DNA of 53,447 nt from Verrucomicrobiia bacterium (lineage in GTDB: Bacteria; Verrucomicrobiota; Verrucomicrobiia; Limisphaerales; UBA11358): assembly GCA_030038175.1 (NCBI GenBank), contig JASHPN010000208.1, forward strand, positions 1 through 53,447. The letters run 5' to 3'. Below, piece by piece: positions 7,061 through 15,738 of the stretch. Within the stretch, counting starts at the first letter, position 1, and each line of letters starts with the position of its first letter. Position numbers and translations under genes: made by a program. The notes under the pieces were generated by a model. The model had not been told where the DNA came from. It ran no database searches and saw only the letters and a program-made list of their open reading frames with translations.

Positions 7061-7519
7061 TCATCTTTCCGCACACAGCCGGCCATCGGTTAAAATTTGA
7101 GCCCGCAGTCCGCCGCCGTTTCGGAGAAACAGTTCCGCGCCCGGCGCGAATGCATGGTCCATCCAATAACATGGCTTGCAATGCTCCGTTCCAAGAAATC
7201 TCACACCTTGAATTTCAAACTCCGCGCCGATCAGCGAGTTCAAATCCACACCTTCAGTCACGACATTGCGCCGCGCGGCGCCGGGTGATTTTCCAGAAAG
7301 CTTCAACGCGGCGCACATCCCGTCAAATATTTCCCGTGAGAAGAAGGTTATCTGTCCCCGGTAATTCTCTTTGTGGCTAAAGAAACGGTCTCCCGGGACG
7401 CCGCAGCCGGCGACACATTCAATTTCCAAAACTTCAACCACGGGATGGCCGCCGGCGGGTCGTCCGTGATGGCCAAAATAGTTGTGACCGGGTGAAATGT
7501 AGAGTTGCCGGATTTTCAT
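7061..7519 (-). CDS. MOSC domain protein
   Basis: GVPGDRF, GQITFF, ARRNVVTEG, CKPCYWM, GGGLRAQIL motifs; last gene of the nitrate operon. Confidence 0.85.
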   Translation of the reverse strand: MKIRQLYISPGHNYFGHHGRPAGGHPVVEVLEIECVAGCGVPGDRFFSHKENYRGQITFFSREIFDGMCAALKLSGKSPGAARRNVVTEGVDLNSLIGAEFEIQGVRFLGTEHCKPCYWMDHAFAPGAELFLRNGGGLRAQILTDGRLCAER

Positions 7520-7536
7520 GTGGTTCAATAGGGGCT

Positions 7537-9870
7537 TCACGGGTGCTGGTTTGAAGAGTCCGCACAAATTTGCGCGAACAATTCATTAATATGCCGGCGC
7601 TGGCCGTCGGTGAATGGCGCCGTTTCAGGCAGCGTTAAAGCAGCATTGCCGTTTGCTTTGTGGTGGCGCAGCGCGAAAGCCAGCCATTCGCTTAAAATTT
7701 CATTTTGTTCCGGCGTAAAATCCCGTTTCTCATCCAACGCTGCTTTGCTTAGCGCCACGCTCGTGAATTTAAATTCCGGCTGCAACGAGATTGGGTCCAC
7801 CGCTTCATTCGTCGCCGCATTGACCGCCAGATTTTCACCAAACAAATCGTTCCAGTGAAAGGGAGCAAAGCAATCCCCTGGCCGGACCCGCCGGGTTATT
7901 TGAGCAGGATAAACCGCCAGACCGCGCCGCGAGGTGACTTTGACCAAAGTTCCATTTTCGACGCCCAGCGCAATGGCATCTTCCGGATTGATTTCTACAA
8001 ACGGCCCCGGATTAAGCTTGTTCAAAACGGCAATCTTCCCGGTTTTTGTCAGGGTGTGCCATTGATGGGCAACTCGCCCGGTGGCAAGCACGAAGGGGAA
8101 ATCTTTATCGGGCAATTCCGCCGGTGGGAGGCATGGACGCGCAAAAAATCGCGCCCTGCCGGATTCCGTCGGGAATTGAATGGTTCGGCCGGCGGATTTT
8201 TTCCCTGTAGGCGAAACGGCATAGCGGATTTTCCTCCCCTCCTTTTCATCCGGTCCGCACGGCCATTGGCAGGTGCCCCGCCGCAGCCGGTCGTAAGAGA
8301 TGCCCCGCAGGTCGTAACCGGTCCGGAAATTCCACGATTGCCGAATTTCGTCAAAAACGTCGCCGGCGCTCTCGTAATTAAAACTATCGCCAAATCCCAG
8401 ATGCCGTGCCGTTTGCGCGAGGATCTCCCAATCTGCCCGGGCATCACCGGCCGGCGCAATGGCCGCCGGCATCAATGAAACTGTTCGCTCGGAATTGGCC
8501 ATCGTGCCTTCCGCTTCGGCCCACAATGCGCCGGGCAATAGAATATCGGCAAATCTTGAAGTTTCCGTCGGATGATAAGCGTCCGTGACCACCACCAGTT
8601 CGGCGCGCTGCAAACCGGCGATGACGCGTCCGCGATTGGGCATCGAAGCAACTGGATTGGTCCCCGTGATCCACACGGCTTTGACGTCGCCGGTCTCCAG
8701 TTTTTTGAAAAGTTCAACCGCATCCAGGCCGGGCGAGGCGCGAATTGTGCCGGGAGGCAGCCGCCATAATTGTTCGATAAAGGCCCGGTCGCCGGCATTG
8801 GCAACATGACGCTGGCCCGGCAACGCGTGGCTCAAATAACCGACCTCCCGCCCGCCCATGGCATTGGGCTGGCCGGTCAGCGAGAAGGGGCCGCTGCCGG
8901 GGCGGCAGATTTTCCCGGTCGCGAGGTGCAAATTGCAAATGGCATTCGTGTTCCACGTTCCGTGCGTGCTTTGATTCAAGCCCATCGTCCAGAACGTGGT
9001 GAACTCCGGCAGTTCTCCAATCCATTTTGCCGCCTGGCAAATATCGTTTTCGCGCAAACCGGTGATTTTCGCGACCTGCGAGGGCGAAAATTCTCCCAGG
9101 AATAAACGCACCTCCTCCCAACCTTCCGTATGTTGATTGATGAATCCTTCATCAATCTGTTGGTTCTTCACCAACAAATGGAGCAGCCCATTCAACAACG
9201 CCAGGTCGGTGCCGGGTTTGATTTGTAAAAATAAATCCGCGGTTTCAGCCGTTGGGGTGCGGCGCGGATCAACGACAATGATTTTTGCCCCCAGCTTTTG
9301 GCGGTCGAGCAAACGCAAAAAAAGAACGGGATGGCATTCCGCCATGTTTGAGCCAACGACCAGGGCACAGTCCAGGCAATCAATGTCCTGATACGAGCCG
9401 GGCGGGCCATCAGCGCCGAGCGACAATTTATAGCCGCTGGCCGCGCTGGACATACACAGGCGCGAGTTGGAATCAATATTGTTCGTTCGCAAAAAACCTT
9501 TGCAAAGTTTATTGGCGAGATATTGCGCTTCCATGGATAATTGGCCTGAAACATAAAACGCCACGGAATCCGGGCCGGATTGCCTGACGATGTCCTTCAA
9601 TCGCGCGGCGGCCTCGGCGATGGCCATGCCCACCGGCAGGCGTTGCATCTCTGAGCCGCGATCTTTCCGCGAGTACGCCGACAGCAATCTTTCCGGCGCG
9701 GTGAGCGTTTCGGCGCACGTCAGGCCTTTGGTGCAGAGCCTCCCAAAATTTGCGGGATGGTTTGGGTCGCCCGTCACCTTAACGACACGTCCGTCCTGTA
9801 CGGACAAGATCATTCCGCAACCAACACCACAATAGGGGCAAACCGTGCGGACATTTTTAGGCAGTGGCAT
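7537..9870 (-). CDS. nasA: Assimilatory nitrate reductase catalytic subunit (Mo-bisMGD, 4Fe-4S)
   Basis: CPYCGVGCG...GRLCTKG cluster motif, NSRLCMSSA, TGQPNAMGGRE, C-terminal molybdopterin dinucleotide-binding domain; ATG at 9870. Naming varies (nasA/nasC/narB). Confidence 0.93.
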   Translation of the reverse strand: MPLPKNVRTVCPYCGVGCGMILSVQDGRVVKVTGDPNHPANFGRLCTKGLTCAETLTAPERLLSAYSRKDRGSEMQRLPVGMAIAEAAARLKDIVRQSGPDSVAFYVSGQLSMEAQYLANKLCKGFLRTNNIDSNSRLCMSSAASGYKLSLGADGPPGSYQDIDCLDCALVVGSNMAECHPVLFLRLLDRQKLGAKIIVVDPRRTPTAETADLFLQIKPGTDLALLNGLLHLLVKNQQIDEGFINQHTEGWEEVRLFLGEFSPSQVAKITGLRENDICQAAKWIGELPEFTTFWTMGLNQSTHGTWNTNAICNLHLATGKICRPGSGPFSLTGQPNAMGGREVGYLSHALPGQRHVANAGDRAFIEQLWRLPPGTIRASPGLDAVELFKKLETGDVKAVWITGTNPVASMPNRGRVIAGLQRAELVVVTDAYHPTETSRFADILLPGALWAEAEGTMANSERTVSLMPAAIAPAGDARADWEILAQTARHLGFGDSFNYESAGDVFDEIRQSWNFRTGYDLRGISYDRLRRGTCQWPCGPDEKEGRKIRYAVSPTGKKSAGRTIQFPTESGRARFFARPCLPPAELPDKDFPFVLATGRVAHQWHTLTKTGKIAVLNKLNPGPFVEINPEDAIALGVENGTLVKVTSRRGLAVYPAQITRRVRPGDCFAPFHWNDLFGENLAVNAATNEAVDPISLQPEFKFTSVALSKAALDEKRDFTPEQNEILSEWLAFALRHHKANGNAALTLPETAPFTDGQRRHINELFAQICADSSNQHP

Positions 9871-9896
9871 TTGACATTGGACCGCGCGATGAACTT

Positions 9897-11615
9897 TTAT
9901 TCGTCGTTTGTGAAAATTGCCTGCAACGTATTGAGATCGTGCCGTGTGGCAAATTTTTGGAATGATTCGCCCGAAGCGCGTCTCCGCAAATATCCCCTTA
10001 ACATCTTTTCGAGCGTCGGTTTCAGTTCCTCCGCCGACACGCCGGAAAAAATCTGGCGGCCGACCGATTGGTTTGCGCCAAAACCGCCGCCGATAAAAAC
10101 ATGATAGCCGTCCTCTCCGCGAACTTTTGTGCCCAGCAACCCAATGTCCCCGATGTAATGCTGGGCGCAGGAATTGGGACAACCGGTTAGATGGATGTTG
10201 ATGGGATTATCCAGCGTTAGCCGCTTATCGAGATAATCGCCCAGCGCCAGGGCGTGTGCTTTGGTGTTCGACTGCGCGTATTTGCAATAGGAATTTCCGG
10301 TACAGGCGACGATGCTGCCGCGCAATAAACTTTGTTGCGTATCAAAGCCAATTTTTCTTAACGCTTTCCTGACCGTTTCGACGTAGGGATCGGAAACGTT
10401 GGGAATGATGAAATTTTGCCAAACCGTCAGGCGGATTTCGCCGGAACCGTAGAGGTCCGCGATTTCCGCGACGCGGACCATTTGTTTTGGGGTGATTTGG
10501 CCCACCGGCATTGCGACCCCGACATAATTCAGACCTTTCTGCTTTTGCGGATAAACACCCAGGTGGGTATGCGGCAATCGCGTTTCACCATAGTCCGGCT
10601 TCGCATCCGCGGAAGCGCGCTGCAATGTGCGCCCAAGCAGTTTTTCCGTCTCGGCCAGATACTTTTCCAGCGACCAGGTTTCGAGCAAATGTTTAAGCCG
10701 GGCCTTTTTGCGGTCGCCGCGATTGCCGTTGGCGATATAGACACGAGCGATGGCAACAATAACCTTGTTCAACTCCTCCGGCTCGACCAGGACGCCCAGA
10801 TCGCGGGCGAAGGCCTTATGCCCCGTGGCTCCGCCGAGCGCGATCCGAAAGAAAATGGCGTCACCGACTTTCACCGCTTTGGCGCCAACATCATTGGTGT
10901 CCTCCACCGCGCCAATCAATCCGCCGCCATCAAAGGCGATATTGAATTTGCGCGGCAAATCATAAAACGAACGGTCATTGATGATGGTTTGCGCGAGTTG
11001 CTGGCAAAAAGGCATGACGTCAATCAGTTCGTGCGGGTCAATCCCGGCTGTGGGATTGGCGGTAAGATTGCGGATGTTGTCCGCGCCCGCGCCGCGCGTG
11101 TGGAGGCCAATAGACTGAATCCGGCGCAACATTTCCGGGCAATCCCTGGGTTGAACCAGCCGCATTTGGAAATTCGCCCGGGTGGTGATTTGCACGTAAC
11201 CGCTGGTGAGTTCTTTTGCGACGCCGGCGAGTTCGCGAAGTTGGAACGTTTTTACCACTCCGCCCGGAATCCGGAGTCTTGCCATGAATGCTTCTTTATT
11301 AGGGGAGAGAAAAAACAAGCCATTCCACTTAAATCGAAAAATTTGCTCTTTGTCGGGAGGTTTGTTGGCGAGCGCATTTTCAAAAATCTGATCGTGCGCG
11401 TCGAGCGGGTGCAGTTCGCGCTTGACCCGTTCTTCAAAAATCAACTCGTCCAAAGAGGCTTTCTTTTCGACAATGGGCGCCGGCTCGACATCGGAGAATT
11501 TGACGCCCTGGGCCGCAAGGCCGGCGAAGAAACCGTCGAGATATTTGCGCTGCTCCTCGTTGAGCGATTCTCCGTTAATGTGCTGGAGAGGAACCAGATT
11601 CATCTTAATAGACAT
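9897..11615 (-). CDS. nirA: Siroheme nitrite reductase, NirA type
   Basis: QITTRANFQ, LPRKFNI, ACTGNSYC...GCPNSC siroheme/4Fe-4S ligands; operon context. Confidence 0.92.
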   Translation of the reverse strand: MSIKMNLVPLQHINGESLNEEQRKYLDGFFAGLAAQGVKFSDVEPAPIVEKKASLDELIFEERVKRELHPLDAHDQIFENALANKPPDKEQIFRFKWNGLFFLSPNKEAFMARLRIPGGVVKTFQLRELAGVAKELTSGYVQITTRANFQMRLVQPRDCPEMLRRIQSIGLHTRGAGADNIRNLTANPTAGIDPHELIDVMPFCQQLAQTIINDRSFYDLPRKFNIAFDGGGLIGAVEDTNDVGAKAVKVGDAIFFRIALGGATGHKAFARDLGVLVEPEELNKVIVAIARVYIANGNRGDRKKARLKHLLETWSLEKYLAETEKLLGRTLQRASADAKPDYGETRLPHTHLGVYPQKQKGLNYVGVAMPVGQITPKQMVRVAEIADLYGSGEIRLTVWQNFIIPNVSDPYVETVRKALRKIGFDTQQSLLRGSIVACTGNSYCKYAQSNTKAHALALGDYLDKRLTLDNPINIHLTGCPNSCAQHYIGDIGLLGTKVRGEDGYHVFIGGGFGANQSVGRQIFSGVSAEELKPTLEKMLRGYLRRRASGESFQKFATRHDLNTLQAIFTNDE

Positions 11616-13353
11616 CCCGTTGATATCGCTTTTCCGATTTCATTTTCACGACATAGGCTTTTGCTTCTTCCGTGCTTTTGCCGCCGCCGGTCTCAATGAT
11701 TTTGTGCAAAGCCTCATCCACGTCTTTGGCCATCCTGCCGGCATCACCGCACACATAAAAGTGAGCGCCCGTGTCGAGCCACGACCAAAGTTCGCCTGCG
11801 CTTTCGAGCATTCGATGTTGAACGTAAATTTTTTCAGCCTGGTCCCGGGAAAAGGCCGTGCACAGTTTTGTCAAATGCCCGTCGGAGAACATCTGTTCCA
11901 GCTCATCGCGATAGTAAAAATCGCTTGCCGCTTTTTGCTCACCGAAGAAAAGCCAGTTGCGGCCCCGGTCGCCGGACGCGCGGCGTTCGTGGAGAAATGC
12001 ACGAAAGGGAGCTACACCGGTGCCGGGGCCAATCATGATGACCGGCACGTTGCCATCCACCGGCAGGCGAAAGCCATGCGAGGACTGGATAAAAACCGGA
12101 ATTTGGCCGTCAACCGTTGCCCGATCCGCCAGAAACATGGAAGCCAGCCCTCCACGCCGGCGTCCAAAACTTTCATAACGCACTATATTGACGGTGAGAT
12201 GCACCTGGCCCGCATGCGATTTGGGACTGGATGAAATGGAATACAACCGCGGTTGCAAGGGCTTGAGCAATGCAATCAATTCGCCGGCGGAAAGTTTCAC
12301 GCCGGGATTTTCATTCAACAGGTCAATTACCCAGCGGCCCCACAACCATTTTTTAAGCTCCTCTTTGGCTTCCTGAGCGAGCAGTTTCGGCAACAAAGCG
12401 TTGTGCTTCGCCAGATGCTGCAAGAGTTCCTGGCCCGGTTTAGTGATGTCTAATTTTTCCGAAAGGGCGCGGCGCAACGGAAATTCGCCACCGGAAATTT
12501 TTACCAGTTCTTCGCCACTGAAACCGAGGCGCTCAAGTATTTCTCCGACGAGAACAGGACAATTTGCCGGCCACACGCCCAGCGCATCGCCCGCCTCATA
12601 TTTCAGCCCGGAGCCTTCAAGGGAAATTTCAAAATGACGGGTTTCTTTTTGCGAGCCTTCGGCGCTAAGTTTGCGGTTCGTGATCAGCCGGGCGAAGAAA
12701 GGGTTCGTCTTTGACCATTCCTTAATGGTGGCAGCCGTTTCTGCTTCAACCGTTGCGGTTCCATTTTGTCCGGATGTAAAAACATCCAGTACGCCGCTTG
12801 TCCATTCCTTTGCCCTGGCCTCATAATCCACGTCGCAGTCCGTGCGAGGATAGAGTCTTTTGGCGCCGAGTTCTTCCAGGCGGCCATCTATTTTCTTTCC
12901 AGCGGCGCAAAAATTCTCGTAATTTGAATCGCCCAGCGCAAGCACCGAGAAATTCAGGTGTGCGAGTGATTTCGCATTTTCGGTCTGGAGCCACTCCCAA
13001 AAGTTCTGCGCATTGTCGGGCATGTCTCCGTCGCCATAAGTGCTGGTTACGATCAAGAGGTTCGTTTCTGTTTTCCAGTCAATTGTGGCGTGCGCGCTGG
13101 AATCAACAACCCGGGGACTGCAACCATGCGCTTGGGACTCTTTTGCGATCTTTTTCGCAATTTTTTCCGCCGTGCCGGTCTGGCTCCCGAATAAGACCAG
13201 AAGCGGCAACGTGGGTGCCGCCTGGTCCACGCCGGCGCCATTTGCCGGGGCATAATGTTTTCCGGCGAGCAAACCAGCCATATAGCCGTTGAGCCAAAGC
13301 CGTTGCTCGGAGCTAAACGGCGCATTTTGGGGAATGAAAACAACGTTTTCCAT
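11605..13353 (-). CDS. CysJ-like diflavin (FMN/FAD) NAD(P)H oxidoreductase, probable electron donor for nitrate/nitrite reductases
   Basis: Flavodoxin FGSQTGTAE and STYGDGD, RLYSISSS, GPGTGVAPFRAF, YVCGDAG, RYQRDVY terminus. Confidence 0.92.
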   Translation of the reverse strand: MENVVFIPQNAPFSSEQRLWLNGYMAGLLAGKHYAPANGAGVDQAAPTLPLLVLFGSQTGTAEKIAKKIAKESQAHGCSPRVVDSSAHATIDWKTETNLLIVTSTYGDGDMPDNAQNFWEWLQTENAKSLAHLNFSVLALGDSNYENFCAAGKKIDGRLEELGAKRLYPRTDCDVDYEARAKEWTSGVLDVFTSGQNGTATVEAETAATIKEWSKTNPFFARLITNRKLSAEGSQKETRHFEISLEGSGLKYEAGDALGVWPANCPVLVGEILERLGFSGEELVKISGGEFPLRRALSEKLDITKPGQELLQHLAKHNALLPKLLAQEAKEELKKWLWGRWVIDLLNENPGVKLSAGELIALLKPLQPRLYSISSSPKSHAGQVHLTVNIVRYESFGRRRGGLASMFLADRATVDGQIPVFIQSSHGFRLPVDGNVPVIMIGPGTGVAPFRAFLHERRASGDRGRNWLFFGEQKAASDFYYRDELEQMFSDGHLTKLCTAFSRDQAEKIYVQHRMLESAGELWSWLDTGAHFYVCGDAGRMAKDVDEALHKIIETGGGKSTEEAKAYVVKMKSEKRYQRDVY

Positions 13354-13374: not shown

Positions 13375-14622
13375 TCATGCCGGTTCGGCGTTTTCCGGAG
13401 TTGAAAGCTCACCGTGTGGGACGGCGCGGCCATGCCGGCCGATCCACACGCCCGTCCAACCTGATTGGGCGACGCTGAGAATGACCAGCGCCACAACCGC
13501 CAGGCCGGCCAACGCCATCAATCCGCTGGCATAACTGCCGCTGATTTGCTTCAGCGAACCCAGCAGGATCGGCAGGCAAAATCCACCCACGCCACCCGCC
13601 GCGCCAAAGATTCCGGTGGCGATACCCACGCGCCGTCCAAACCGCTGGGGCACGAGTTGAAAGACGGAACCGTTGCCGACACCAAGACAGGCCATGAGCA
13701 GAAAGAACAAGACCGTGACCAGATCGAGCGCCGGCAGTTGCGCAGCACCCAGCGCAAGCAGTGAAATCACACCGTAAAGAACGGCCAGGACCCGGACGCC
13801 TCCGAGCCGGTCCGCCAGAAAACCGCCCACGGGACGCAAGAAGCTTCCCGCCATGACGCACAGCGCGGTCAGATCGCCCGCCGTTACTTTGGATACGCCG
13901 TATTGGTCACGCAACAGAATCGAAAGGAAACTGGCAAGCCCGACGAATCCACCGAAGGTCACCGCGTAGAAAACGCTGAAGAGATAAGTGTCAGGCTCCT
14001 TGAGCATGCTCATAAATTCCGAACGATCGCTCGTTTTGCGCGTTCCCGGCGCTTCTTTGGCCAGCGAGATGAATACGCTCGCAGCGATCAGCAATGGCAG
14101 AATTGCCAATCCAAATACGGTGTGCCACCCATATGCCTCCGCGAGTCGCGGCGCGAAGAAGGTTGCAAACACGGTTCCTGAATTTCCCGCCCCGGCGATG
14201 CCCATGGCCAATCCCTGGTGCCTGGCCGGATACCATCGGCTGGCCAGCGGCAAGGCCGCCGCAAAACTCGCTCCCGCGACCCCCAACAACAACCCAACAC
14301 AATAGATTCTGCCAAGGGAATCCGCCCACAACCATCCGCCCAGCAGCGGCAGTATCGTCGCGGCCAGTCCCAAACAACCGGTTTTTTTGGGTCCAATACG
14401 GTCGGTCAATTGTCCAAACACCAATCGAAGGATGGAACCGCCCAGCAAGGGAACCGCCGTCATCAATCCCTTTTGCGCCGGGCTGAGCCCCAGGTCCGCG
14501 GCTACGTAATTGCCGAGCGCGCCCAGAAGCACCCAGATCATGAAACTAACGTCAAAGTAAAGAAACGCGCTAAACAGGGTGGGCAGATGCCCCGATTTCC
14601 AGAATGATTTTTCGCTTTTCAT
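13375..14622 (-). CDS. NarK/NasA-type MFS nitrate/nitrite transporter
   Basis: About 12 TM segments; GVAGASFAA, GAGNSG, RPVGGFLADRLGG, GNGSVFQLVPQRF signatures. Confidence 0.92.
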   Translation of the reverse strand: MKSEKSFWKSGHLPTLFSAFLYFDVSFMIWVLLGALGNYVAADLGLSPAQKGLMTAVPLLGGSILRLVFGQLTDRIGPKKTGCLGLAATILPLLGGWLWADSLGRIYCVGLLLGVAGASFAAALPLASRWYPARHQGLAMGIAGAGNSGTVFATFFAPRLAEAYGWHTVFGLAILPLLIAASVFISLAKEAPGTRKTSDRSEFMSMLKEPDTYLFSVFYAVTFGGFVGLASFLSILLRDQYGVSKVTAGDLTALCVMAGSFLRPVGGFLADRLGGVRVLAVLYGVISLLALGAAQLPALDLVTVLFFLLMACLGVGNGSVFQLVPQRFGRRVGIATGIFGAAGGVGGFCLPILLGSLKQISGSYASGLMALAGLAVVALVILSVAQSGWTGVWIGRHGRAVPHGELSTPENAEPA

Positions 14623-14643
14623 GTTTGGCAAGGGGTTCATCAA

Positions 14644-15738
14644 TCAGTTTAAACAGGGAACAAGTTCGGGCGGGACCTGGCTTCTAAAACGGAGACGGCG
14701 GGCCTGGTTGAAAATGTCCGGCCGGAAAACTTTGCGGGCCAGATTTACATTCAACCGGAATGGCTCTTTGCACAGGCCGCTCGTACGGACCAATCCCAGC
14801 ACCCAGGCCGCGTTGTCGGCGGAGGGTTCATTGGCGTCCGGCCCGTTAAAAATACAAAACCGTTCAACCAGCCGGGAAACGTTGTGCCCAAAATCCAGTT
14901 CCCCGTTGATTCCGTGACGCAATGCGCTCGAAGAAACGCCGATATATTCCGGTTGCGAAAGGACGGAAATGACGTCGCCCTGGTTTTCAACCGCGGCGCA
15001 AAACTCGCAGGCCTCCAACAATGCGGCAATTAACGTGACGTGTTCCCCGGCGCGCCCCTCGGCAAAATCGCGGCGAATCATCAGGATTTTCTCCGGATGG
15101 CCCGGGTCCAATTCCGCGCTCGTCGCGACAATCCAGCCCGCCCGCGATTGCACAGCAACCGAGTTCCAGGGTTCGCCCGCGCAAAAGCCGTCCAAATGGC
15201 CCGCCAGCAAATTTGACGCCATTTGCGGCGGCGGCACGATCACGATGCGCACGTCCCGGTCCGGGGTAATCCCGTGGGAAATGAACCATCGGCGCAAGAG
15301 CTGGCGGTGCGACGAAAAAGGATGAACCGCGCCAAAGGTGAGTACTCTCTCCCGGCGGGCGCGCCTGATTTCTTCACCCAGCGTTCGGCCGTCACGGACG
15401 CCGCGTTTCCACAGTTCGTTGGAGAGAGTGATGGCATTGCCATGGAGATTCAGCACCAGCGCGGTCAGGCAGTCACAGGCAATCGAACCCAGGCCCAGCG
15501 TGGCCGCCACCGGCATGGCCGCCAGGGCGTGCGCGGCGTCCAGTTCGCCGTAAATGATCTTGTCCCGTACCGTCGCCCAGCCCAGTTCGCGGCTCAAGGC
15601 AACGCGCAGGCCGTATTTCTGAAACAGGCCAAGCTCCTGCGCCATGACGATTGGAGCGCAGTCCGTCAGCGGCACAAAACCCAGCCGCAACACCCTGCGC
15701 GGCGGAGTCAAAATCACTGTCTGGCTCTTTTTAAACAC
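14644..15738 (-). CDS. NrtA/CmpA/NasS-family nitrate-binding protein lacking a signal peptide
   Basis: LRLGFVPLTDCAP, GFCAGEPWNS, HPEKIL; GTG start; no Tat/Sec leader visible. Confidence 0.88.
   Translation of the reverse strand: MFKKSQTVILTPPRRVLRLGFVPLTDCAPIVMAQELGLFQKYGLRVALSRELGWATVRDKIIYGELDAAHALAAMPVAATLGLGSIACDCLTALVLNLHGNAITLSNELWKRGVRDGRTLGEEIRRARRERVLTFGAVHPFSSHRQLLRRWFISHGITPDRDVRIVIVPPPQMASNLLAGHLDGFCAGEPWNSVAVQSRAGWIVATSAELDPGHPEKILMIRRDFAEGRAGEHVTLIAALLEACEFCAAVENQGDVISVLSQPEYIGVSSSALRHGINGELDFGHNVSRLVERFCIFNGPDANEPSADNAAWVLGLVRTSGLCKEPFRLNVNLARKVFRPDIFNQARRLRFRSQVPPELVPCLN

Follow-up and report, generated by a model that had tools for sequence, protein, structure and literature searches.

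The closest described relatives of the system analysed here are the sulfite reductase of Escherichia coli, CysJ8-CysI4 (SiRFP/SiRHP), in which a diflavin reductase serves a sirohaem/[4Fe-4S] hemoprotein, and NasN of Mycobacterium smegmatis (MSMEG_4206; 'bifunctional nitrate reductase/sulfite reductase flavoprotein subunit alpha'), in which one chain of about 1,350-1,400 amino acids (aa) draws electrons from NADPH through a diflavin module. A third relevant group are the bacterial NirA proteins, including those of the alphaproteobacterial type, which are usually described as ferredoxin-dependent nitrite reductases. Here, we analyse a nitrate-assimilation locus of a Verrucomicrobiia bacterium (Limisphaerales, UBA11358; assembly GCA_030038175.1, contig JASHPN010000208.1; the window is the whole stretch of 53,447 nucleotides), where a CysJ-like diflavin reductase, a NirA-family nitrite reductase and the nitrate reductase NasA, encoded in region 7537-13353, carry related segments, or tags, at their termini.

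The N-terminus of CysJ has an experimentally defined role. In the E. coli protein, octamers form only if the first 51-52 residues are present, and these residues suffice for assembly even when placed on SUMO; AlphaFold predicts a helix-turn-helix for this peptide, and Gln22, Tyr39, Phe40 and Gln47 are critical in it (Stroupe laboratory, 2026 preprint, 10.64898/2026.04.08.717228). The SiRFP assembly peptide, the NasN fusions and the description of the NirA family as ferredoxin-dependent are thus already known. No description of a tag shared by NirA and CysJ, or of a tagged NasA, was found in the literature searched, although such absence is not proof.

Related terminal segments on CysJ, NirA and NasA

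The initial annotation of this region named the three enzymes and quoted four of their segments as a common helical motif. The identities of the minus-strand genes were borne out by Pfam and NF007126, and all four segments were found exactly as quoted, at the termini to which they had been assigned:

11605-13353, minus: CysJ-like diflavin reductase, 582 aa, with flavodoxin, flavin adenine dinucleotide (FAD) and NAD domains (Pfam PF00258, PF00667, PF00175)
9897-11615, minus: NirA-family sirohaem/[4Fe-4S] nitrite reductase, 572 aa (NF007126; Pfam NIR_SIR, NIR_SIR_ferr)
7537-9870, minus: NasA assimilatory nitrate reductase, 777 aa, with a 74-aa C-terminal tail (Pfam Molybdop_Fe4S4, Molybdopterin and Molydop_binding, ending at residue 703)
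13264-13335, minus: CysJ N-terminal tag, residues 7-30, IPQNAPFSSEQRLWLNGYMAGLLA (CysJ-N profile family)
11505-11567, minus: NirA N-terminal tag, residues 17-37, SLNEEQRKYLDGFFAGLAAQG (hhalign 97.5% against the CysJ-N profile)
7669-7722, minus: NasA tail copy 1, residues 717-734, DFTPEQNEILSEWLAFAL, NirA-like predicted helix (hhalign about 96% against CysJ-N and NirA-N)
7567-7632, minus: NasA tail copy 2, residues 747-768, LPETAPFTDGQRRHINELFAQI, CysJ-like segment with both Gly replaced (hhalign 97.9% against CysJ-N)

None of these segments is covered by any Pfam model. Hidden Markov models (HMMs) built from the four window segments alone, as the annotation had suggested, gave borderline statistics in leave-one-out searches and missed NasA; independent family profiles were therefore built from 80 other verrucomicrobial loci (65 CysJ N-termini, 78 NirA N-termini and 10 NasA tails), and their results were clear. 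Among the 77,785 six-frame open reading frames (ORFs) of the bacterium's own genome, the CysJ-N profile ranked NasA second through copy 2, as its best non-self match (E=0.023), and NirA fourth (E=0.25), and CysJ stood second with both the NirA-N profile (E=0.029) and the NasA-tail profile (E=0.007). CysJ and NasA are mutual best non-self matches in this set. A third-ranked match, on contig C143, was dismissed as a spurious ORF of 46 aa. Neither the NirA-N nor the NasA-tail plain HMM found the other protein among these ORFs, so that CysJ appears as the hub of the resemblance.

Profile-profile comparison relates all four segments beyond chance. With hhalign, CysJ-N matched NirA-N at 97.5% (E=8e-12) and tail copy 2 at 97.9% (E=5e-13); copy 1 matched CysJ-N at 96.0% and NirA-N at 95.9%; copy 2 matched NirA-N at 92.8%; and the two copies matched each other at 94.6%, whereas none of the 76 background windows tiled over both proteins exceeded 30%. 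The proposal of one motif on three enzymes therefore stands at the profile level, with a direct plain-HMM match between NirA and NasA missing. Copy 1 (DFTxEQK) is the weakest of the four segments.

Aligned on the invariant glutamine in 63 paired loci, the shared pattern reads [FL]-[TNS]-x-E-Q-x-x-[WY]-L-x-G-[YFL]-[LF]-A-G-L, and the Gln and both Gly are invariant in the CysJ and NirA families. This pattern describes an amphipathic helix with an N-cap, one face of which bears G-x-x-x-G, a known helix-packing motif; the consensus adopted for the motif has R directly after the Gln (E-Q-R-x).

The annotation had implied a new module. The motif is instead the conserved N-terminal self-assembly segment of CysJ/SiRFP: TIGR01931 (cysJ) aligns with the window protein from residue 14 (residues 14-582 on profile positions 22-597), which places the tag within the conserved CysJ N-terminus. 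The score of 642.6 bits lies below the equivalog cut-off of 668.15, and NF008197 gave 537 against a cut-off of 838; by these profiles, the protein, which has the flavodoxin/FAD_binding_1/NAD_binding_1 architecture of CysJ/SiRFP, is a close relative and not an equivalog of the sulfite-reductase CysJ. Residues 29-49 of E. coli CysJ (sequence from NC_000913.3), corresponding to helix 2, align with both the verrucomicrobial CysJ-N and NirA-N profiles. Tyr39 and Phe40 lie between the two glycines and correspond to Y24/M25 of the window CysJ and F29/F30 of NirA, so that G-Y-F-W-G of E. coli becomes G-Y-M-A-G and G-F-F-A-G, respectively. Unlike the helix-turn-helix of E. coli, the window CysJ has a single predicted helix that follows a conserved IPxxAPF segment: with only 10 residues before the tag, there is no equivalent of helix 1 or Gln22, and Lys32 occupies the position of Gln47. 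The NasA tail, unlike this tag, does have two helices. Solved structures begin to align at query residue 46 for CysJ, and at residue 89 or later of NirA for ferredoxin-dependent nitrite reductases, so that none covers the tag.

The locus thus resembles the E. coli system in having a diflavin reductase of the same family, a homologous N-terminal helix with aromatic residues inside G-x-x-x-G, a flexible tether leading to the flavodoxin domain, and a sirohaem/[4Fe-4S] hemoprotein as client. It differs in that the client is a NirA-family nitrite reductase which is itself tagged, whereas E. coli CysI is untagged, and in that a molybdoenzyme is tagged as well.

Conservation, pairing and origin of the tags

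The window NirA scored 695.8 bits with NF007126 (PRK09567, 'NirA family protein'; cut-off 523; residues 16-570 on profile positions 5-589) and 140.9 with TIGR02041 (cut-off 756), so that the hemoprotein encoded next to CysJ belongs to the NirA family and is not CysI. Across 51 CysJ sequences whose mean identity is about 55%, P8, P12, F13, Q17, W20, N22, G23 and A26 of the tag are invariant, as invariant as the cofactor-binding residues; Q22, Y25, L26, G28, F30 and G32 of the NirA tag are likewise invariant in the alignment of homologues (63 sequences). The tethers are variable in both families.

A cysJ gene adjoins nirA in 74 of 80 NirA loci, and in the three of the remaining six that were checked (L014, L034, L076), a tagged CysJ is encoded elsewhere in the genome. 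The window cysJ and nirA overlap by a few bases, as they do in other loci, and such tight translational coupling is consistent with co-assembly. When the phylum was sampled evenly, a NirA-family protein above the cut-off was encoded in 49 of 401 genomes (33 of 185 genera), and it always aligned from profile position 2-11. Sub-threshold paralogues mostly begin at position 39-74, so the tag is missing from them. In 16 loci, for example L037:7950-7955 and L055:6257-6262, the nirA ORF starts directly after the cysJ stop in the same frame, often with its ATG (...RYQRDVY*M...).

In its own genome, a phmmer search found no CysJ paralogue, which leaves the window CysJ as the only diflavin reductase found, and no NirB-like protein was detected with NirA as the query. 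The sole other sirohaem reductase paralogue (C143:2945-4663) is CysI/Sir-like and untagged and has no adjacent flavoprotein.

The tagged CysJ/NirA pair is common in Verrucomicrobiota and is also present in Alphaproteobacteria. The nas clusters of the Bradyrhizobium, Afipia and Methylocystis type encode a NirA of the same family with an N-terminal tag: in Methylocystis/Afipia sequences, the N-terminus MSxDFTLDQKRYLEGFAAG places the tag at the extreme end in 116 of 120 sequences. The adjacent FNR-type reductase is tagged too, opening with IIPETAPFSxEQRxWLNGFFAGL, and this tag hardly changes between phyla (IPETAPFSQEQRSWLNGFFAGL in Afipia, with similar segments in Methylocystis, Sulfitobacter and Shinella). 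Unlike the window CysJ, the Methylocystis/Afipia partner is a PRK06214-type 'sulfite reductase subunit alpha' that has no flavodoxin domain and contains a CGQCGYNC cysteine cluster, which is probably an iron-sulfur substitute for flavin mononucleotide (FMN). Sulfitobacter has a full CysJ-like partner. The NasC of these alphaproteobacterial clusters, unlike the window NasA, bears no tag and has a BFD [2Fe-2S] domain and an FAD oxidoreductase of its own (Flp/NasB-like); in Bradyrhizobium, nitrite use is known not to require flp. The NirA of Pseudomonas aeruginosa (PA4130), considered for comparison, was set aside because it appears to be a different, ferredoxin-type enzyme. Two further observations concern these partners. 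In L085:10728-12317 and L089:8755-10377, the PRK06214 partner is tagged and its CGQCGYNC cluster lies about 90 residues in. On a Shinella plasmid (NZ_OZ000532.1; L097:501-7746), a canonically tagged CysJ-like reductase, IPYIPEDAPFNADQRAWLSGFLAGL, directly follows an untagged 1,828-aa 'glutamate synthase-related protein', which may be a further client of tagged CysJ that docks differently.

Mutual information across the loci was highest, among 550 NirA columns, between CysJ position +2 and NirA position +2, which split perfectly: A in CysJ accompanies A/E/S/R in NirA, and L accompanies K/N/Q/R. The loci are phylogenetically related, and the signal is therefore only suggestive.

The tail of NasA ends, as the annotation had it, in two degenerate copies of the motif, at the place where a BFD domain is often found: the NasC of Afipia has its BFD at the position of the tail, and the Pfam scan did not match PF04324 (Fer2_BFD) on the window NasA. 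The 11 tails (10 loci and the window) are only 32-47% identical, yet copy 1 always retains F, Q and L, and copy 2 always retains P, P, F, Q and R.

Tail-bearing proteins form class I of the verrucomicrobial NasA (10 loci and the window), encoded directly after nirA. In a related group, NasA forms an in-frame fusion with CysJ (L046, L064) or is encoded immediately upstream of cysJ (L058). Class II (34 loci) has no tail, and a DmsB-DmsC-like iron-sulfur/membrane-anchor fusion is adjacent in 33 of the 34; this is the arrangement of most verrucomicrobial nas operons and suggests a quinol-fed assimilatory nitrate reductase. In class III, membrane or iron-sulfur partners are encoded in six of six loci. 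The DmsB-DmsC-like partner is found in none of the 10 tail-bearing loci and in none of the three fused or adjacent ones. The tail is thus found exactly where no other electron-donor module is encoded. As to sequence, class II proteins end in FDPHSRQPSYKxCAV, and their partner is a DmsB-like 4Fe-4S/DmsC-like fusion of about 550 aa (L008:9716-11365, L023:9714-11417, L039:1877-3577 and 30 further loci). Class III proteins end in LDPISKIPEFKVCAC and stand beside a protein of about 380 aa with a faint Nitrate_red_gam match (L016:9711-10868, L050:966-2078), which may be another membrane partner.

The tail is rare, occurring in one of the 401 sampled genomes. Its profile, run against 1.84 billion cluster representatives, gave 24 significant matches, mostly short C-terminal fragments of NasA; tail-less members probably stand for full-length NasA in the clusters; several multi-repeat proteins matched only at the generic DFTxEQK cap. 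A word-index search with NasA residues 700-777 found the window protein alone, the tail being too variable for 5-mer seeding.

Fusions of nitrate reductase with CysJ, which the annotation had mentioned for other bacteria, were indeed found in Verrucomicrobiota (L046, L064), Paraburkholderia (1,387 aa) and Streptomyces (1,399 aa). The latter two, of the NasN type, contain two tandem copies of the motif between the molybdopterin-binding and flavodoxin domains: the first is a NirA-like helix (HYMAGFVSGL; RRYLSGFLTGL) that corresponds to tail copy 1, and the second is a CysJ-like segment (ANAPLSANARLWLDGVLAGL; PDAPFEAAHALWIDGVLAGT). In a maximum-likelihood tree, tail-bearing NasA is sister to the NasN fusions (support 100/99), and the verrucomicrobial fused group branches just outside the two (99/96). 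The window NasA thus shares with NasN both the catalytic clade and a two-helix element after the molybdopterin-binding domain, with the difference that its nasA and cysJ are separate genes with nirA in between, the reductase half being shared with NirA. The best account of the tail appears to be that it is a two-helix linker left over from a NasN-type fusion; in the simplest history suggested by these relationships, a NasN-like enzyme was shortened by the loss of its reductase half, with the linker helices staying in place. In those NasN fusions that occur with NirBD and without NirA, the linker tag is degenerate, the otherwise invariant Gln being replaced by A or H; the Gln is kept in the verrucomicrobial fusions found alongside NirA and in the split tails, where the Arg is invariant too.

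A candidate docking module and its alternatives

We consider it fairly probable that the segments are hetero-oligomeric docking tags through which the NAD(P)H flavoprotein holds NirA and NasA in one complex. The flavoprotein would keep its self-assembly helix at the N-terminus, NirA would present a copy tethered by about 20 flexible N-terminal residues, and NasA would present two copies (helix, turn, helix) on its C-terminal tail. Co-assembly of the three kinds of helices into a mixed helical bundle would make the CysJ oligomer the core of the complex and hold NirA and NasA, on flexible tethers, beside its FMN domains. Electrons from NAD(P)H could then pass through FAD and FMN to the [4Fe-4S]/Mo centre of NasA and to the [4Fe-4S]/sirohaem of NirA, in a route that would run without a dedicated NasB, NirB or iron-sulfur/membrane partner. 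We infer this hetero-association, along with its stoichiometry and the electron path, from the homology to an experimentally tested assembly peptide, the profile similarity of the four segments, their constraint and co-occurrence, the match between tail and missing donor, the covariation, and the NasN linkers, where a NirA-type and a CysJ-type helix joined in one polypeptide amount to Rosetta-stone-type evidence for an interaction of both types.

Several observations weigh against this interpretation. E. coli CysI uses loops within its own first 80 residues to dock on the FNR domain of CysJ and not on the CysJ N-terminus, so that tag-mediated docking of a client is without precedent, and NasN of M. 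smegmatis is reported to be monomeric (cited in PMC11162112). An AlphaFold2 single-chain model of the L037 pseudo-fusion (CysJ, the stop read as Trp, and NirA 1-53), read for confidence and not for contacts, gave the NirA helix a predicted local distance difference test (pLDDT) score of 83/72, and a control with the CysJ N-terminus deleted gave 81/77; confidence in this helix is therefore intrinsic. Copy 2 of the NasA tail has lost both glycines of G-x-x-x-G, the N-cap part of copy 1 resembles generic TPEQ helix caps and also matches unrelated repeat proteins, and the covariation of CysJ and NirA could be a clade effect. Finally, the L058 NasA, a member of the fused clade, has neither tail nor fusion, possibly owing to a frameshift in a metagenome-assembled genome.

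Some of these facts fit the alternative that each tag drives only the homo-oligomerisation of its own protein, with the likeness due to common descent or convergence and the electrons delivered by transient collisions, ferredoxin or flavodoxin. The sole experimental datum, after all, is a homo-octamer of E. coli CysJ, the NirA helix is modelled independently of the CysJ helix, and bacterial NirA is usually called ferredoxin-dependent. We nevertheless find this account unlikely, since it leaves unexplained the constant co-occurrence of tagged NirA with tagged CysJ, the presence of the NasA tail exactly where NasA is without another partner, and the juxtaposition of NirA-type and CysJ-type helices in the NasN linkers. 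Alternatively, only the CysJ and NirA tags might be functional and the NasA tail a decaying relic of a NasN-type linker, NasA being reduced by another carrier. The sister relationship with NasN fusions, the absent glycines of copy 2 and the rarity of the tail (the single sampled genome and the 24 database matches) would all suit a relic; the strict conservation of eight positions across tails so divergent overall, and the lack of an alternative donor gene in all 10 tail-bearing loci, would not, and we regard this possibility as quite unlikely.

It is also typical of the cargo of bacterial microcompartments (BMCs) that several enzymes of a pathway bear short amphipathic helices at their termini, and a BMC shell locus does occur in this genome, on contig C353; the segments could accordingly be targeting or encapsulation peptides for a microcompartment, a membrane or a regulator, with no role in mutual docking. 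This was rejected for BMC or encapsulin targeting, since the BMC genes lie on another contig where the motif profiles match nothing and no encapsulin was found. A shell gene was present in none of the nas loci examined, and the tag occurs also in Alphaproteobacteria and in E. coli CysJ, where self-assembly has been seen in vitro, all of which makes targeting of any kind very improbable. The shell locus itself (C353:17550-23120) comprises five BMC-domain genes, presumably of a PVC-type microcompartment unrelated to the nas operon.

If the docking interpretation holds, a more tentative generalisation, which we put forward as possible and somewhat short of an even chance, is that the CysJ N-terminal peptide is a general hetero-oligomeric scaffold that incorporates tagged clients (widely NirA, and in some Verrucomicrobiota also NasA) into the flavoprotein core of an NADPH-driven nitrate-to-ammonium metabolon. 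Such a metabolon could limit the release of nitrite, and many bacterial 'ferredoxin-nitrite reductases' would be subunits of NAD(P)H-nitrite reductases; from a tag that NirA shares with the NAD(P)H flavoprotein next to it, a physiological donor other than ferredoxin would be predicted in heterotrophic bacteria. The purpose of the SiRFP N-terminal peptide in sulfite reductase has been a puzzle for 50 years, and recruitment of clients offers a testable function for it. The NasA tail, for its part, would be the mark of a fused enzyme that shed its reductase half and stayed wired to a shared reductase through a tag of 50 residues, and such wiring by tag retention could be useful as a principle in designing modular redox complexes. 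Testing the hypothesis should cost little, since the peptides are short and a SUMO-fusion assay is already established.

Neighbouring genes and related loci

The three enzyme genes are flanked on the same strand by others, in the order NMT1/NasS-like, NarK-type, cysJ-like, nirA, nasA, MOSC:

14644-15738, minus: NMT1/NasS-like protein gene (Pfam NMT1_2)
13375-14643, minus: NarK-type MFS transporter gene (Pfam MFS_1)
7061-7567, minus: MOSC-domain gene, overlapping the end of nasA (Pfam PF03473)

The motif HMMs give no match on the MOSC-domain gene, which is to say that its product bears no tag. ORFs of similar size follow the class I NasA in L004 and L017. In E. coli, CysJ is said to pass electrons to the MOSC protein YcbX, as Kozmin et al. 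reportedly found in 2010, and by analogy the window MOSC protein could be a CysJ-fed detoxifier of hydroxylamine or N-hydroxy compounds.

The database copy of the window NasA is 758 aa long (P0121). The 777-aa start used here, MPLPKNVRTVCPYCGVGCG (9814-9870, minus), is required for the N-terminal [4Fe-4S] cysteine motif, and the called start of the shorter copy is therefore probably too far downstream.

The close homologues of the window proteins and the 80 related loci are all from Verrucomicrobiota. Six contigs (L012, L039, L052, L057, L003 and L048) carry typical verrucomicrobial nas operons, yet their record titles say Bifidobacterium/Bifidobacteriaceae, Methylomirabilota or Binatia, which probably reflects mis-binning or mislabelling of metagenome-assembled genomes.

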